A stretch of DNA of 64,000 nt from sequence record PZ179883.1. One strand, given 5' to 3'. Positions 1 to 16,087 of the stretch are shown in pieces. Numbering within the stretch: the stretch's first letter is position 1; each line of letters starts with the position of its first letter. A program made the position numbers and the translations under genes. This stretch comes from a phage. Under the pieces are notes generated by a model. The model had not been told where the DNA came from. It did no database searches and saw only the letters and a program-made list of their open reading frames with translations.

Positions 1-417
1 GCGCATGATGTCAGGAATAGCACCTACATCTGGCATTTTCTTATTTCGTTTTTCCGGAGGAAGCTCAGCATTAGTTTGAATTTCGATTATTTTAGACGTA
101 GCATTAAACATCGCCCTTTGCTGAACATATTTTTCTGTTTCTTTTACTAACCAACTGTGGTCTTCTGGAGAATCGGCTAGTTTTGAAATAAGTGTTTTTA
201 CACCAGAATATTCTGTTTCAGTAAATGAACTATTTTCTAATGCAACATTTAACGCATTAATAGATGGAACGCTATGGTACTCATTAACATGAGATTTGAT
301 TAATTTGAATGTATTTTTAGCTGGACCACTTTCAAAATATTCTGAATCCATATATGGCCAAACTTTTGAAAAATAAGCTTGATCAAATATGAGATGAGAA
401 AGAATAATTTCTACCAC
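1..417 (-). CDS. 41: Replicative DNA helicase gp41, N-terminal part; gene runs off the window start; apparent GTG start
   Basis: Minus-strand translation from ~417 reads VVEIILSHLIFDQAYFSKVWPYMDSEYFESGPAKNTF, matching the T4 gp41 N-terminus as I recall it; lies downstream of gene 40 as in T4. Not in the ORF track (partial, non-ATG start). Confidence 0.8.
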   Translation of the reverse strand, partial: MVEIILSHLIFDQAYFSKVWPYMDSEYFESGPAKNTFKLIKSHVNEYHSVPSINALNVALENSSFTETEYSGVKTLISKLADSPEDHSWLVKETEKYVQQRAMFNATSKIIEIQTNAELPPEKRNKKMPDVGAIPDIMR

Positions 418-426
418 ACTTACTCC

Positions 427-789
427 TTAAAAGAATTTAAATTTTTTCTTTGACCTTTTATTAAATGCATCTTGTAGTTGCATTGTAATACATTTTTCTA
501 CATGAGGAGCTAACTCAGCTTTTCTTTCTTGGTCAAGAACAGCAAAGTCCATTACGACTTTTCCATCAACCCAATCTAATTTTGTCACATACACAATGTG
601 TGTAGAACCATCTTCTAGTTTAATGACAATCTCCTGGATAACATTTTCCATGGCAGATTTAATTATCTTAAGAGATTCATTAAAAAGACGTTCTTTTCTT
701 TCTTCTTCCCCCTCCGAAGAGGGGGATTCGTCAATAATTTCTAGATCTAAATCTAAATCATCTTTATTCATTAAATTCTTCCATATCAC
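427..789 (-). CDS. 40: gp40 head vertex assembly chaperone (by synteny)
   Basis: 120 aa ORF between uvsX and 41, the T4 position of gene 40; acidic N-terminus. Confidence 0.6.
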   Translation of the reverse strand: MIWKNLMNKDDLDLDLEIIDESPSSEGEEERKERLFNESLKIIKSAMENVIQEIVIKLEDGSTHIVYVTKLDWVDGKVVMDFAVLDQERKAELAPHVEKCITMQLQDAFNKRSKKKFKFF

Positions 790-1945
790 TTAACTGATCT
801 AGGTCAGTTTCTAAATCAGCAGCTGATTTACTTTTACTTTCTGGGGATTTAAATTTTTCAACCTTTGAGTTAATTAATTCATCAACTTCAGCTTCAACAA
901 TTTCATTACTATCAATAGCGCCTAATTGATAAGCACGTTTAATAGCATCCCGGAATGGTTGATGCTTAAATAAAGGACCCCAAAATGTAGTGCAATTGGT
1001 ATCTTTTGCACGCCAAGATTTTTCTTCGCGAATCATCTCGCCGGTTTCTTCATCAAGAAATTCACGAGCATACCAGCCATTTTTAGGTTTTACTACAAAT
1101 CCTAATTCAAGGGCCATATCTAATAATCCAGAATAAGGATCGATGCCACCATCAAATTTAACATCAATAAAGAATTTACTTTTTTCTTTGACGGTACGAG
1201 ATTTTTCTACATTTAGAACAAATTGATACCCCTGAAGATCAGAACCATCTTTAATCTGACGTTTACCGATAATGAATACAGTATCAGCCGAATACATTAC
1301 GCCTGTACCACCTGTCATCACGGTTTTACTAAACATTTCAATTGTTTCAATTGTATGGTTAACCGCAACACACGGAATGTTTTTAATACTAAAATAAGGA
1401 GTAACAATACGGAATAATGACTTCAGTGATTTAGCACGAGTCATATCTGCCACAGATTTTTCATTCAAGGCATCTTCCGTTTCTTTCTTAGAAGCCATAT
1501 TACCAATTGAGTCGATGAATACAATAACTTTTTCACCGCGCTCAATAGCTTCAAGCTGATTCACCATATCAATTTTCAGCTGTTCAACTGACTGGATTGG
1601 TGTATGAATTACTCGTTCCGGGTCAACTCCCATGGATCGCAAATAAGCTGGAGTGATACCAAATTCGCTATCATAAAATAGACAAACCGCATCAGGATAT
1701 TTGTTCAAATATGCCGCAACCATAGTCAAAGACATATTTGATTTAAAGTGTTTAGAAGGACCTGCGAAAATAGTTAAACCAGACTGCATACCGCCATCAA
1801 TCGCACCGGAAATAGCGATATTAAGCATTGGGATTTTTGTACGGATTACATCCTTTTCATTAAAGAACTTAGATGTAGTCAGTTCAGCAGTCATTTTAGA
1901 AGTGGAAGCTTTAATCAAACGGGATTTTAAATCTGCAATAGACAT
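764..1945 (-). CDS. uvsX: UvsX RecA-like recombinase
   Basis: 393 aa beginning MSIADLKSRLIKASTSKMTAELTTSKFFNEKDV, near-identical to T4 UvsX; RecA fold Walker motifs. Confidence 0.95.
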   Translation of the reverse strand: MSIADLKSRLIKASTSKMTAELTTSKFFNEKDVIRTKIPMLNIAISGAIDGGMQSGLTIFAGPSKHFKSNMSLTMVAAYLNKYPDAVCLFYDSEFGITPAYLRSMGVDPERVIHTPIQSVEQLKIDMVNQLEAIERGEKVIVFIDSIGNMASKKETEDALNEKSVADMTRAKSLKSLFRIVTPYFSIKNIPCVAVNHTIETIEMFSKTVMTGGTGVMYSADTVFIIGKRQIKDGSDLQGYQFVLNVEKSRTVKEKSKFFIDVKFDGGIDPYSGLLDMALELGFVVKPKNGWYAREFLDEETGEMIREEKSWRAKDTNCTTFWGPLFKHQPFRDAIKRAYQLGAIDSNEIVEAEVDELINSKVEKFKSPESKSKSAADLETDLDQLSDMEEFNE

Positions 1946-2022
1946 TCATTTTTTCCATAGGCATCATTATATTTTCCTCACTGGTTAAAGATAGAATAAT
2001 TATAACACAATAAATTTAGGCA

Positions 2023-2865
2023 TTAATCAACTGCTATTGGATGAATAGCATTAAACTTATGAAATGCTTCTGATTTTTCTTTACGCGAAACACACATGCG
2101 AAGAACCTTTAATGGCTCGTCTTCTTCACCCAACGATTTTCGTTTTTCAATATTCGATGTTTTCCAACGAGCTTGCTCTGGAAACTCTCTATTGATTTGC
2201 TCAAGCGCTCTATTATGTTTAGAATTACTACGAATTGAACTACATCCACCGGGAGCGTGTGATTTTCCAGATACAACTAGATATTTGAACAAGGCCAAAT
2301 GCGGATAACCTTGATTAATTAAATTGAGAAATGCATACATATCTTCGCATAAATCAATTTTTCCATACCCAATTTGTTCTGTCGTAAGTTTTCCGAGGTC
2401 ATACCATGTATTCGTGAATCCATATGAGTTTTCACGATAATTACCCCAAGATGAAGTAATTTTAAAAATTGGTAGACGAGCATGACCGTGATAATACCCG
2501 CAATCCATGGCATCTTCAACATATTGAATCAATTCATAGAACTGTTCACGAGTTAATTGATTAATTTTATCTACACGCCGTTTATCGTCTCTCTTTCGTA
2601 TTGAACTCATACGAATAGTAGTATCATCATCAATCATCCAGATTCGTTGACCTGCATACATATCAGTAATTGCTTTACGAGTACCAGCAATTCCATTAAC
2701 ATCATCAGGAATAGTTATAATTTTAGCTCTAGACCCATAAGCGTCATAATAAGCTTTTTCTTCGTGTTTACGTACTACAATATGAGGTTCATAATCAGTT
2801 GGAAACATATCAAGGGCAGAAACTGCCCCTACACGCTGATAACTTGGAATTACGAATTGAATCAT
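2023..2865 (-). CDS. Glycosyltransferase at the beta-gt locus; not T4 beta-gt-like, possibly a T2/T6-type beta-glucosyl-HMC-alpha-glucosyltransferase
   Basis: 280 aa ORF occupying the uvsX-to-42 interval where T4 has beta-gt; sequence does not resemble T4 beta-gt as I recall it. Assignment is by position. Confidence 0.5.
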   Translation of the reverse strand: MIQFVIPSYQRVGAVSALDMFPTDYEPHIVVRKHEEKAYYDAYGSRAKIITIPDDVNGIAGTRKAITDMYAGQRIWMIDDDTTIRMSSIRKRDDKRRVDKINQLTREQFYELIQYVEDAMDCGYYHGHARLPIFKITSSWGNYRENSYGFTNTWYDLGKLTTEQIGYGKIDLCEDMYAFLNLINQGYPHLALFKYLVVSGKSHAPGGCSSIRSNSKHNRALEQINREFPEQARWKTSNIEKRKSLGEEDEPLKVLRMCVSRKEKSEAFHKFNAIHPIAVD

Positions 2866-3503
2866 TTAAGTGCCTTACATTTGTCAAAATGGTATCTTGT
2901 CATATTTGGCCCACGTCCTTTTAGTCCGCAATGCGGACATATTTTTTCTATCAAATTATGAGGTTTTCCTTTACGATTTTTAGACATCGTTTCTTTAATT
3001 ATTTTAGCTTTTTCTACGCCAAAAATTTCTTCATAAGTTTTACCAGAATTTTCCTTGGCTCGATTTATAATTCCATATGCCTGCTCATTTTTACCATACA
3101 TTGGATTACCTTCGCCTTTCATTCTTTTAGAATGATCAGGACGCTTGATTCCACGAAAGGCATTTCCGCACTTATATCTTTCTTCTGGAGATAGTTTTTT
3201 ACCGTACATTCCATTTAATTTGCCTGGAAAACTTCCTCCCCATGCTTCATTCTTTAAATTATATGAATCCGGACAATTAGCAGCATCTAAACAAGTTAAA
3301 ATAATTTCTTCAACCTGTCTAAACATTGGTCCTTCATATAATATTTCTTTATTAAAGGATTTTATTCCATATTTCTTTTTAGCATGTTGCCAAACTACAC
3401 CCGAACCATCATAATTCGGGTTGTGACCATCATGACTTCCTATATACCACTTTTTAGTTTTAGGATGTTTATACTTATAAACATGTGGCACATTTACTTC
3501 CAT
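2862..3503 (-). mobile_element. Free-standing GIY-YIG homing endonuclease with C-terminal zinc-finger region
   Basis: N-terminus VYKYKHPKTKKWYIGS fits the GIY-(10 aa)-YIG motif; repeated NPMYGK-type motifs; CPHC...HFDKC zinc-finger-like C-terminus; 4 nt and 10 nt overlaps with flanking genes. Confidence 0.7.
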
Positions 3504-4234
3504 TTTCCAGTATAATCCTTTTTAGCAATATGAGTCTCACCGGTGTTCCACCAATGGTCAACTAAATAAAACTGATTTTCGTACACATGAAGACTTCCAA
3601 CGTTCCATATAATAGAACCTGCTTTATATTGCCGCGATGGGTCGCCTGCATTCAAATCAGATACTAATTTATCTAGTACGTATTTTTGCCAAGCATAATC
3701 ATTACGATAGCCTGCCCAGCAATCATTGCTTCTCATGCTAACAACCGCATTGACTTTCTTATCACGAATCAGGTACTGTACTGTATTCGTACACATGAAA
3801 TCTGACATACCATCTTTATTGTAGTCAAACTGCATAGATGGACGAGTATAAATCATGATACCACGTCGAGAATCAGGATTTTGACCAAGTTCAGCTAAAC
3901 ACATATCATACTGGGCATAGTTATCTTCTGACCAGATGGCCCAACCATAATTCGAGTTAATTTCGCCTTTAGAAGATGCTACCTGCTGCCAAATCTTTGG
4001 TGTTTCACCTGGAATATCTTTAACAAACAAACTTTGAGACTTATACCATTCAAGTTCACGCTGAATGTATTCATCATTAAGAGCGCCAAAAATAAACGGT
4101 TCATCTGCTACAAATGATGCGCCAATAATTTCAATAGTTTTAACGCCAGTTTTATCAACTACGAAATCTTTTTCTTTTAATGCAAGCCCCAAATGAAGAC
4201 GGATTTCTTCAACTGTCATAGAGTCACTAATCAT
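3494..4234 (-). CDS. 42: dCMP hydroxymethylase gp42
   Basis: 246 aa, same length as T4 gp42; thymidylate-synthase-like fold motifs. Confidence 0.95.
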   Translation of the reverse strand: MISDSMTVEEIRLHLGLALKEKDFVVDKTGVKTIEIIGASFVADEPFIFGALNDEYIQRELEWYKSQSLFVKDIPGETPKIWQQVASSKGEINSNYGWAIWSEDNYAQYDMCLAELGQNPDSRRGIMIYTRPSMQFDYNKDGMSDFMCTNTVQYLIRDKKVNAVVSMRSNDCWAGYRNDYAWQKYVLDKLVSDLNAGDPSRQYKAGSIIWNVGSLHVYENQFYLVDHWWNTGETHIAKKDYTGKWK

Positions 4235-4387
4235 TTAAACCTCAATTGATACATTCATATTTAACTTGTAACAGTAATAAACCCCAACCTAAAATAATAG
4301 TTGGAATCATAAGAGGAACCGTTACACTATAGTATATACTTATTATAATCATCAAGATTAAAAGCAACACTGCTATAATTTTGCTTT

Positions 4388-4639
4388 TCATTCCTTCTCT
4401 CTGATGATAATTACTTGATTTGGCTGTGCAGACTTTTTAGTTTCACCAGCAATTGACCAAATAAATGTAATAAACCAACCAATGATTGACCAGTTAAACA
4501 GTAAAGATGTAAAAAAGATTCCTACTGTCGATTTTGACCCACGCATCAAGGCAATGAACCAAGGAAGCATGTATATAATAATAGCCAACACACCTGAAAC
4601 TAAAACCATAAAAATTGAACCTGCTACTAAAGTTTCCAT
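4388..4639 (-). CDS. imm: Imm superinfection immunity membrane protein
   Basis: 83 aa with two hydrophobic helices; between 42 and 43 as in T4. Confidence 0.7.
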   Translation of the reverse strand: METLVAGSIFMVLVSGVLAIIIYMLPWFIALMRGSKSTVGIFFTSLLFNWSIIGWFITFIWSIAGETKKSAQPNQVIIIREKE

Positions 4640-4646
4640 GTTTTCC

Positions 4647-5027
4647 TCACTTAGTCAAATTTTTTACGCATGAATTATAAGAATTTACTACATACTCAAT
4701 CGGAGCATTTTTACCAGTACGCCATTGATAATTATTAGCCCAATTAGCCCAAAGTTCGGCACAGTAACTTTCAATTTTTTCTTCACGTGTAATCACATCT
4801 GAATTACGATATGCTTGAGCAGATTCATCTGGACGAATAGCTTCGTCAAAATTCGCCTGCATTTGTTCTACTGTCTGTTTTGGAGCTTCTTTATAACACT
4901 TAACATTAGGATTATAAAATTTGCTTGAACAGTTTACAATTTTTCGTACATCAGACTGATTTACTACTGGTCCTTGAGCTACACAGCCAGTAAGACCCAA
5001 TGCAATAACCAAAATAGCGATTTTCAT
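4647..5027 (-). CDS. Predicted lipoprotein (lipobox LTGC)
   Basis: N-terminus MKIAILVIALGLTGC is a classic signal peptide plus lipobox; lies between imm and 43, where I recall no gene in T4. Confidence 0.6.
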   Translation of the reverse strand: MKIAILVIALGLTGCVAQGPVVNQSDVRKIVNCSSKFYNPNVKCYKEAPKQTVEQMQANFDEAIRPDESAQAYRNSDVITREEKIESYCAELWANWANNYQWRTGKNAPIEYVVNSYNSCVKNLTK

Positions 5028-5455: not shown

Positions 5456-8152
5456 TCAGCCAAACAGGAAGTCTAACGAAGCTTTTTCCTCATAGTCCAT
5501 ACCCGCCGATTCACACATACCCGCAAGCGGTTTAACAAACGATTTTTGGAACAAAGTTGAGTAGTCAATCCAAGACAGTACATCAGAACGAATTTCTTTT
5601 GGAAGTTCCGTACCCGATGGCCAAGCAATGCACTTGTCACCAAATGGATTTCCCTCACGTAATGGAAGAACCATTACCTTATTTCCATCCAAAATTGGAG
5701 CTACACCTAAACCGCTAACAGCTCGACGATAAGTTAGCACCCCACGAATGTGGAACGGGCATTTAAATCCTGGCCAACCTTTATCGTCATATTTCGCTAT
5801 ATCGTTCGCAGTTTTTACTTCAGCAATAACTTTATAGTCAAGTTGACGATATTCTTTCTCAAAGTTCTTATAGTATTCTTGGACAGACTCTTCACCTTCC
5901 TGAAGAATGCGACGAATACTTTCTTCGAGAGCTTCTTGTACTGCTTTTGGTGTTGAACTCTGCTGAGTTTCCATACCCATGATTTTTAGATGTGGTTCAG
6001 CAAATCGTTTATCTTCCATATCATAAACGTTCAGAGCATAACGTTTTTTCGCTTTCCAAAATCCACCAACACCCTTTGAACCAAGCGGAGGACAAGAAAT
6101 AGCTTCACGGTCCATATGCATCAGATGCTCGCGGTTATTCATATAATCACATAACTCACGATATGCAACATCAATCATAGGTTCCATCTTTTTCTTACCA
6201 AACTGATTCATGAATTCAACTAAATCATTTTGTTCTTTAAAGCGATCAAGACCTACTTTTTCAATAACTTTATCTACACAAACATATACCGAATCAGTAT
6301 CACCCGCTGCGATGAAATCTTCGCCATTAGTTCCACACACCTTATTCAAGTATTCATTAATTTTACGAGCAATCCACTGAATACCAACTTGACCAAAAAT
6401 TGTGATAGCAGTAGCATTTCGCAAATCATAATAACGGAAATGAATATTACCAAGAGCACCATAAAGACTGTTGATAAGAATTTTACGGTTTAGCTGATTT
6501 GTGTTAGCAAGAGTAGCTGCTTTTTCACATTCTTCAATCAGACTATTAAGAACAGATTCGGTGTAATTCGATAATTCATTTAAGAAATCATCATTGAACT
6601 TAACATATCGTTCAACTTCTGGTTTAGTTGAACAAGACCCTGCACCTTTCATAATAATCTTTTTAATAGCTTCGGCATTCATTTCTTCGGCGAACATTTT
6701 CTTTTTCCAATCTTTACGCTGGAAAAATACTTTAGCGATTTCCTTTGGAATGATACCTTCTTGGTGCTTATCATACATCCATCCATTCGGAGAGCAAGAA
6801 TATTCATCACTTGGCTTAGGAGCTGTTCCTGCGATGTATTCATGAATTGGATGAACTTTGAACTGACCACGAATAGTTTCAGGACTAATGTTAACCTGAC
6901 GAATAATGCTAGGATACAGAGACGTCAAGTCAAAACTCATAATGTATCGACGGGCAATCGCTTTAGGTTCAAACACAAATGCACCTGGAAAACTTTGTTT
7001 AACGTGCGAACCTTGTTGAGGAATAACCTTGTGTTCACCTTTCAATGAGTTAAAAATAATAGCATCCCAAGTTTTAATAGGACTCATTACACCAGAAAAA
7101 GGCATTTTAGCGTAATAAGACATACTTAAAACTAGATCGATAAACCCACGAATTTTATCAATTGCTTGAACTGATTCTACGTCAATGATGTTATAACTAA
7201 TGTATCGTTGATGATTAGTCTCACGAAGTTTATTAATAGGACCGTCGTATGGTAATTTACCTTTTTTGGTTTCATGTTGAGCAACTGATTCCAAAGAGAA
7301 TGATGGCAAATTAGTAAATGCGAATTTTTTGTACAAATCTAAATAATCAAGAATAGATACGCCATCAATAGAATAAATTTCTTTGCTACCGTACATATTT
7401 TGAATTAGTTTAGATTTTACTCGACCGATTGGGGAGAAGCGTTTCATACTGCGTTCGCCCAGAACCATTTTAACGCGATTCATGATATACGGAACGTCAA
7501 ATCCCTCAATATTCCAACCGGTAAAAATAGCAGGTCGTTTCTGTTCCCAGAGATTAATATATTCCATGAGCATATCACGCTCATTATCAAATGGCATATA
7601 AATTACTCGGTCAAGAATTTCTTGAGGAACTTCATCACCACCTTCACAGTCAAGCTTAGCAGCTAACTTTGCATCCCATTTTGATACTGAACCGTACATT
7701 GAATTCAAAAGGTCGAAAACATAAAAACGATCATCAATTGAATCGTAATGAGTGATAGCATCAATTTCATATTCAGCTTTCATTGGGTCAGGAAATTTAT
7801 CACCAGTAACCTCAATGTCACAGTTAGCTACACGAACAAATTTTCGGTCATAAACAATTTCTGAACCATACGTATCACTGATATAAGCGAGTTTAAAATC
7901 GTTCATACCGAGAGCTTCGAGACCGATGTCTTCCATTCGCTTCATCCAATCTCGAGCATCTTTCATTGATGGAAATTTTTGAGGAGCGCAGTTTTTACCG
8001 TAGATGTCTTTGTATTTTGACTCTTCCTTACAATGCCTAAACATAGTTGGAAGATATTCTACTTCACGAGTACGTTCCTTTCCGTTTTCATCAATATAAC
8101 GTTCAACAATATTATTTCCGACTGTTTCGATAGAGATATAAAATTCTTTCAT
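5456..8152 (-). CDS. 43: DNA polymerase gp43 (family B)
   Basis: 898 aa, T4 gp43 length; exonuclease and polymerase motifs (for example DTDS); preceded by the gp43 translational operator hairpin. Confidence 0.97.
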   Translation of the reverse strand: MKEFYISIETVGNNIVERYIDENGKERTREVEYLPTMFRHCKEESKYKDIYGKNCAPQKFPSMKDARDWMKRMEDIGLEALGMNDFKLAYISDTYGSEIVYDRKFVRVANCDIEVTGDKFPDPMKAEYEIDAITHYDSIDDRFYVFDLLNSMYGSVSKWDAKLAAKLDCEGGDEVPQEILDRVIYMPFDNERDMLMEYINLWEQKRPAIFTGWNIEGFDVPYIMNRVKMVLGERSMKRFSPIGRVKSKLIQNMYGSKEIYSIDGVSILDYLDLYKKFAFTNLPSFSLESVAQHETKKGKLPYDGPINKLRETNHQRYISYNIIDVESVQAIDKIRGFIDLVLSMSYYAKMPFSGVMSPIKTWDAIIFNSLKGEHKVIPQQGSHVKQSFPGAFVFEPKAIARRYIMSFDLTSLYPSIIRQVNISPETIRGQFKVHPIHEYIAGTAPKPSDEYSCSPNGWMYDKHQEGIIPKEIAKVFFQRKDWKKKMFAEEMNAEAIKKIIMKGAGSCSTKPEVERYVKFNDDFLNELSNYTESVLNSLIEECEKAATLANTNQLNRKILINSLYGALGNIHFRYYDLRNATAITIFGQVGIQWIARKINEYLNKVCGTNGEDFIAAGDTDSVYVCVDKVIEKVGLDRFKEQNDLVEFMNQFGKKKMEPMIDVAYRELCDYMNNREHLMHMDREAISCPPLGSKGVGGFWKAKKRYALNVYDMEDKRFAEPHLKIMGMETQQSSTPKAVQEALEESIRRILQEGEESVQEYYKNFEKEYRQLDYKVIAEVKTANDIAKYDDKGWPGFKCPFHIRGVLTYRRAVSGLGVAPILDGNKVMVLPLREGNPFGDKCIAWPSGTELPKEIRSDVLSWIDYSTLFQKSFVKPLAGMCESAGMDYEEKASLDFLFG

Positions 8153-14868: not shown

Positions 14869-14887
14869 AAAGGGCCGAAGCCCTTTA
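14869..14887 (-). terminator. C(UUCG)G tetraloop hairpin at the 3-prime end of a-gt
   Basis: Same aaagggccgaagcccttt unit. Confidence 0.6.
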
Positions 14888-16087
14888 TTTTGTAATAATG
14901 TCAAACTGTTCTTTAAAGCAGAAGCTTGAATCTTGGTGCTGATACAAAAATTCATAAGCTTTTTCACGTTCGCGGTCATAAAGAGCTCGGTCAGATGACA
15001 GTTCTTTAATACGTTCAAATGTTGATTCCATGTCATTTTCATCAAACCAAACGATACCGCTATCATGAGAAATTAATGGAGTATTATCAACACGGAATTT
15101 TAAATTTTCGCCCGTAGATTTCCAAAATACCGGAATTGTTCCACATGCACCAAGCTCGAGATGAGTGTATTCTAAAGAACGCTGTAGATATTTTTTGTCC
15201 AACTTACTCAGCTGATAACCAAATCCGGATTTACTCATGCGTTCAAGCATTTCGCTATTTACATAACGGTCAAGAATTTGCGTTGGCAAATTAGGAGCAA
15301 TTTTAATTTGGTCTACTTGATGAAGACGATAATACTCGTATGGAATTCCTTTTTCTTTAATAGGAATGAACGCTGGAGAACGTTCCAGACCTTCCATAAT
15401 AGTACTTAGTCCTGCAGGTTTAAGATGTTTTTCATGAAAATCAAACATCTGATAAAAGCCTTTCCATGTAGTCGTACGACCAATCCAACGGTTGATATTC
15501 ATGTTAATTTCAGAAACATCTTTCCAGTAGGTTGACCGAACCTTCGCAATATCCATAGGAGGCTGAAAGTTATATACGGTCGGCGCTTCTTCAATATCAT
15601 CAAACAGAGAAACTGTTTCTGGATACCATTCTTTCATCAAAACTTTATTAAAGTCACCATTATCAGAATGGCTAAAAATAACATCAGCTCGACGAACAGT
15701 TTCTTCTAATCCCAAATTTCGGCGCAAAGAAAGAGAAGAATGGTCATGTTGATAAACTACAACACGAACCGAAGGTTTAATGTTATCAATAATTTTTTTA
15801 TAGTTATTAATAGTGTCTTCTTCAACCGAAGTAGCAGGAACTGAATTGATAATTAGAATATCACAATCATTTACCAGCTTAAGTGTTTTATCGTATTCTT
15901 TTGCCAATAAAACCGGAATTGAAAATGATTTATAATCATGCGCACAATTACGAGTAAATGATTTATCTTTAGCATAAACCAAAGTTACTTCATGACCATT
16001 TTTAATAAACCAATCACGCTGCTCAAGAGAAAATTTAGTTACACCGCAACCTTCAAGACCTCGAGCCATAAAAATACATACTTTCAT
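14885..16087 (-). CDS. agt: HMC alpha-glucosyltransferase
   Basis: 400 aa beginning M.VCIFMARGLEGCGVTKFSLEQRDWFIKNGHEVTLVYAKDKSF, near-identical to T4 a-gt as I recall it. Confidence 0.95.
   Translation of the reverse strand: MKVCIFMARGLEGCGVTKFSLEQRDWFIKNGHEVTLVYAKDKSFTRNCAHDYKSFSIPVLLAKEYDKTLKLVNDCDILIINSVPATSVEEDTINNYKKIIDNIKPSVRVVVYQHDHSSLSLRRNLGLEETVRRADVIFSHSDNGDFNKVLMKEWYPETVSLFDDIEEAPTVYNFQPPMDIAKVRSTYWKDVSEINMNINRWIGRTTTWKGFYQMFDFHEKHLKPAGLSTIMEGLERSPAFIPIKEKGIPYEYYRLHQVDQIKIAPNLPTQILDRYVNSEMLERMSKSGFGYQLSKLDKKYLQRSLEYTHLELGACGTIPVFWKSTGENLKFRVDNTPLISHDSGIVWFDENDMESTFERIKELSSDRALYDREREKAYEFLYQHQDSSFCFKEQFDIITK

Follow-up and report, generated by a model that had tools for sequence, protein, structure and literature searches.

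The DNA analysed here is a stretch of 64,000 nucleotides from phage sequence record PZ179883.1 (hereafter the window), and it belongs to the genome of a Tequatrovirus (T-even phage). Hundreds of T4-like phages of Escherichia, Shigella, and Yersinia align at approximately 97% with the first 25 kb. The minus-strand genes run in the order gp40, uvsX, a 280-aa ORF, a 213-aa ORF, gene 42, genes of the imm region, and gene 43 (Table 1). The 280-aa ORF is full length, starts with ATG, and has uvsX on one side and gene 42 on the other. An initial annotation of this DNA had placed an ORF of that length in the uvsX-to-42 interval, and we confirm it; the 213-aa ORF in the same interval had not been mentioned.

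Table 1. Genes of the window that are discussed in the text.
Feature	Position	Strand	Basis or remark
uvsX recombinase, downstream flank of the cassette	764..1945	-	ORF; DNA similarity to T4
ba-gt/TAGT, beta-glucosyl-HMC-alpha-glucosyltransferase (very probable), 280 aa	2023..2865	-	GT-A fold; DDD at residues 79-81
Seg-like GIY-YIG homing endonuclease, 213 aa	2862..3503	-	PHROG 314; similarity to T4 SegA
Gene 42, dCMP hydroxymethylase, supplies hmC	3494..4234	-	Pfam Thymidylat_synt; annotation of relatives; DNA similarity to T4
Gene 43	5456..8152	-	Gene-order listing
a-gt, DNA alpha-glucosyltransferase, 400 aa, T2-type allele	14885..16087	-	Pfam AGT PF11440, E 2.4e-236

The 280-aa ORF very probably encodes a T2/T6-type beta-glucosyl-HMC-alpha-glucosyltransferase (known as ba-gt, g-gt, or TAGT), an enzyme that extends alpha-glucosyl-hmC to gentiobiosyl-hmC. 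Over its full length it matches PHROG 842, annotated with this function, at 1.5e-87. The Pfam TAGT profile (PF20691) aligns residues 3-207 with profile positions 2-205 of 205 and scores 39.4 bits, above the curated gathering cutoff of 27.5. Of its 280 residues, 271 are identical to the T2 enzyme (97%) and 269 to that of T6, both of them characterised genetically and biochemically, while the TAGT of phage Geo (vB_Eco_Geo, OZ034685.1) differs at only two positions (278/280, 99.3%). The initial annotation had proposed an enzyme of the T2/T6 type, and these matches bear the proposal out. In T2, T6, Geo, Solly, EL, BGP, CP, Some, and EH2 the gene likewise lies in the uvsX-to-42 interval, and the window, with a-gt elsewhere in the genome, has the same arrangement. 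The chemistry of this enzyme, including transfer of glucose in beta-1,6 linkage onto alpha-glucosyl-hmC, and the consequences of that chemistry would be those reported for its near-identical orthologues.

The TAGT of the window resembles those of T2 and T6 in its length of 280 aa, its position between gene 42 and uvsX, its DDD motif, its GT-A class, and its a-gt partner. It differs from them (96-97% identity) by six linked substitutions, by E33K, a substitution private to the window at a variable column, and by the homing endonuclease gene that adjoins it upstream. The Geo TAGT agrees with that of the window in haplotype and synteny.

Conservation was read from an alignment of ten homologues with identities down to 31%. 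R11 and the D79-D80-D81 triplet are invariant across all ten, as is a further set of residues, and P251 is nearly invariant. The TAGT of the window retains every invariant column, R11 and DDD among them, and has P251. The triplet comes after a hydrophobic strand (RIWMIDDD), as a GT-A DXD motif, which binds metal and nucleotide sugar, would. The same alignment gave an AlphaFold2 model of moderate quality (mean pLDDT 69, pTM 0.71), with two loops of low confidence at residues 126-151 and 194-210 (pLDDT below 50). In the model the protein folds as one Rossmann-like domain, which matches GT-A glycosyltransferases. The model supports the fold class rather than the detail of the active site. A sequence search of the PDB for a solved relative returned none at an E-value of 1 or better.

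In T4 the slot between uvsX and gene 42 is occupied by b-gt (beta-gt; PF09198, CAZy GT63), whose product has the GT-B fold (PMC13216743) and likewise uses UDP-glucose to glucosylate hmC DNA. The two enzymes are unrelated in sequence and fold, and they differ in acceptor: T4 beta-gt uses bare hmC and yields mono-beta-glucosyl-hmC, whereas TAGT extends alpha-glucosyl-hmC. The location of the ORF in this slot is the one feature of the window that would suit a diverged T4-type beta-glucosyltransferase, placing a single beta-glucose straight onto hmC, and a few database records do call TAGT a 'beta-glucosyltransferase' (for example those of SH7, KX828711, and Sf21, MF327007). However, BLASTP of the ORF against T4 beta-gt (351 aa) found nothing (best E 3.9), a tblastn search of the entire 64-kb window with T4 beta-gt likewise gave no match (best E 5.0), and PF09198 gave no match to the ORF at an E-value of 0.1 or better. 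Furthermore, the predicted single-domain GT-A fold is not the two-domain GT-B fold of the T4 enzyme, and phages with TAGT gave no detectable beta-glucosyl-hmC (PMC13390438). The DNA between the two flanks is also unrelated to that of T4. The T4 genes 41, 40, and uvsX align with window positions 1-1933 at 90% identity, the similarity stops at position 1933, and the T4 gene 42, imm, and imm.1 region aligns with positions 3502-5027 at 93%; in between, the T4 segment carrying segA and b-gt (1931 bp) has nothing in common with positions 1934-3501 of the window, so that the difference is one of a clean cassette. A diverged T4 beta-gt was rejected on the two negative searches and the different fold, and we regard it as extremely improbable; the initial annotation's view that the ORF is unlike T4 beta-gt was right.

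The 213-aa ORF that shares the interval with TAGT has a PHROG 314 match ('homing endonuclease', 2.3e-31) and 32% identity to T4 SegA (E 4e-9). It overlaps both its neighbours, the start of TAGT by the sequence ATGA and, on the other side, the end of gene 42. This gene is absent from T2, T6, Geo, and Solly, in which the gene 42 stop codon directly overlaps the TAGT start. At 95% identity or more it is present in only 78 phage records, compared with about 475 that carry TAGT at 90% or more. The Seg-like gene is an optional mobile insertion and stands outside the glucosylation pathway. In T4, segA is located on the uvsX side of beta-gt, whereas the Seg-like gene of the window is located between gene 42 and TAGT; thus a homing endonuclease gene can adjoin the glucosyltransferase cassette in either of its versions.

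We searched a phage collection by tblastn and found TAGT in 689 records, of which 475 have it at an identity of at least 90%. The matches are mostly annotated as beta-glucosyl-HMC-alpha-glucosyltransferase and always adjoin gene 42. In contrast, only 29 records have T4-type beta-gt at that level of identity. A 2026 survey likewise found that the pair of alpha-GT and beta-GT is nearly unique to T4, that the usual pair is either one of these with TAGT, and that very few phages have all three types together (PMC13216743). TAGT is therefore the majority state of T-even coliphages and T4 the exception. Textbook knowledge, recently re-examined, covers the TAGT gene and its product as well as their role in the T-even arms race. 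Since TAGT in place of beta-gt is the usual arrangement, the finding is ordinary though correct, and the initial annotation had overrated how unusual this locus is. Databases sometimes give TAGT and beta-gt, although unrelated, each other's names; in addition to the mislabelled SH7 and Sf21 records, the T4-type b-gt of RB55 (KM607002) is labelled 'beta-glucosyl-HMC-alpha-glucosyl-transferase'.

In the pathway proposed for this phage, gp42 would make hm-dCMP, which would be incorporated into DNA during replication. After replication the alpha-glucosyltransferase would place alpha-glucose on hmC in the DNA, which would form the acceptor for TAGT. TAGT, as a DXD-motif GT-A enzyme using UDP-glucose, would then add a beta-1,6-linked glucose to the alpha-glucose to give gentiobiosyl-hmC. 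With gp42, alpha-GT, and TAGT as its enzymes, the phage DNA should therefore contain bare hmC, alpha-glucosyl-hmC, and gentiobiosyl-hmC side by side, and no beta-glucosyl-hmC; a beta-gt in the remainder of the genome, beyond the 64 kb searched, is improbable, as very few phages in the 2026 survey have all three glucosyltransferase types (PMC13216743). A mixture of this composition has been reported in relatives: HPLC/MS of Geo, EL, and BGP DNA gave hmC, alpha-glucosyl-hmC, and gentiobiosyl-hmC in a ratio of about 1:2:2, without beta-glucosyl-hmC, and the second glucose in the Durham Tequatrovirus phages was attributed by the authors to TAGT (PMC13390438). Measurements on phages with a TAGT 99.3% identical to that of the window have thus already shown the non-T4 glucosylation pattern that the initial annotation anticipated. 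In T6, deletion of ba-gt leaves alpha-glucosyl-hmC alone, and the Brig1 glycosylase can then degrade the DNA in vitro (PMC11078745); similarly, the BapA glucosidase acts on the DNA of a T6 delta-g-gt mutant (bioRxiv 10.64898/2026.02.25.707755).

The PF20691 family is broad, and many phages have solitary TAGT homologues without a-gt or b-gt, which may act directly on hmC (PMC13216743). An enzyme of this family could in principle use another sugar or acceptor than the T2/T6 enzyme, for example by acting on hmC itself. For the window we give such a change of specificity next to no weight, because its TAGT is 96-99% identical to those of T2, T6, and Geo, has the same synteny, and has an a-gt partner.

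The a-gt gene of the window is intact, as had been stated previously, but it is not near-identical to that of T4, as had also been stated. Its product is identical to that of T4 at 364 of 400 positions (91%), compared with 396/400 for T2 and 398/400 for Solly. The same allele, at 396-398/400, is shared by T2, Solly, and EH2, whereas T4, T6, and Geo have another; the a-gt of Geo is 395/400 identical to that of T4 and represents this T4/T6-type allele.

TAGT is also found as two haplotypes, which are set apart by six linked residues. The first (I89/K95/R97/I101/S202/H203) is present in the window and in Geo, EL, and BGP, the phages measured at about 1:2:2, or approximately 40% gentiobiosyl-hmC (PMC13390438). 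The second (M89/R95/C97/V101/A202/Q203) is present in Solly, CP, Some, EH2, T6, and T2; in the first four of these approximately one third of the cytosines are hmC and two thirds (about 67%) gentiobiosyl-hmC (PMC13390438). The published gentiobiosyl-hmC values for T6 and T2 are approximately 72% and 5% (PMC11078745; PMC13390438). TAGT haplotype and a-gt allele vary together across the Durham phages that were checked. Geo combines Geo-type TAGT with the T4/T6-type a-gt, whereas the window combines Geo-type TAGT with the T2/Solly-type a-gt, a combination present in no measured phage whose alleles were compared. Perhaps, and we offer this only tentatively, the TAGT haplotype tracks the ratio of mono- to di-glucosylation (approximately 40% versus 67-72% gentiobiosyl-hmC) and the window is a natural recombinant of TAGT and a-gt alleles. 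The association is drawn from seven Durham phages and T6 and is confounded by phylogeny; the Durham phages QOTSP, NR1, and TB37 lie outside the allele comparison. The allele pair of the window is a small natural experiment on how the mono- to di-glucosyl ratio is controlled.

Both T6 records carry a probable lesion in TAGT, and the lesions differ. In MH550421 (locus L003, 2138-2980, minus strand) codon 10 has changed from CAG to TAG (amber), and the gene is annotated from M20. In AP018814 (locus L016, 1135-1974, minus strand) an in-frame loss of one Asp reduces the invariant DDD to DD. These independent lesions could be mutations of laboratory stocks or sequencing errors. T6 was consequently rejected as a clean reference sequence for high gentiobiosylation and was used for haplotype assignment only.

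The presence of TAGT does not fix the level of modification, since orthologues that are 96-97% identical differ as widely as those of T2 and T6. The enzyme of the window might work at a low level, as in T2, leaving a T2-like phage whose DNA is mostly mono-alpha-glucosylated with bare hmC; its 97% identity to the orthologue of T2, a phage with little gentiobiosyl-hmC, and the T2-type a-gt allele of the window (396/400) are in keeping with this. However, the T2 TAGT has the substitutions R11H and P251S, whereas the window keeps R11 and P251. In addition, Solly and EH2 have the T2-type a-gt allele, yet about two thirds of their cytosines are gentiobiosylated (PMC13390438), and the phages with the TAGT haplotype of the window measure approximately 40%. 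We consider T2-like low activity unlikely. Of the two T2 substitutions, R11H falls at an invariant column and P251S at a nearly invariant one; both are shared by two independent records (PV958097 and AP018813), and they are a candidate explanation of the low gentiobiosylation of T2 relative to T6.

With Geo-type TAGT and T2-type a-gt together, the mono- to di-glucosyl ratio of the window cannot be read directly from its measured relatives. Given its mixed alleles and its freedom from the T2 and T6 lesions, we infer from those relatives that gentiobiosyl-hmC would be substantial, in the range of about 40% to 67% of cytosines, which the sequence narrows no further.

The glucosylation pattern predicted here differs from that of T4 in its sensitivity to sugar-specific defences. 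In published cases gentiobiosyl-hmC resists both the Brig1 glycosylase in vitro and the BapA glucosidase. The share of bare hmC would be sensitive to McrBC-type and Brig3-type defences, the alpha-glucosyl-hmC share to Brig1, and the gentiobiosyl-hmC share to GmrSD-type and BrxU-type enzymes. For predictions of its encounters with host defences, the phage of PZ179883.1 should thus be treated as T2/T6-like rather than T4-like.
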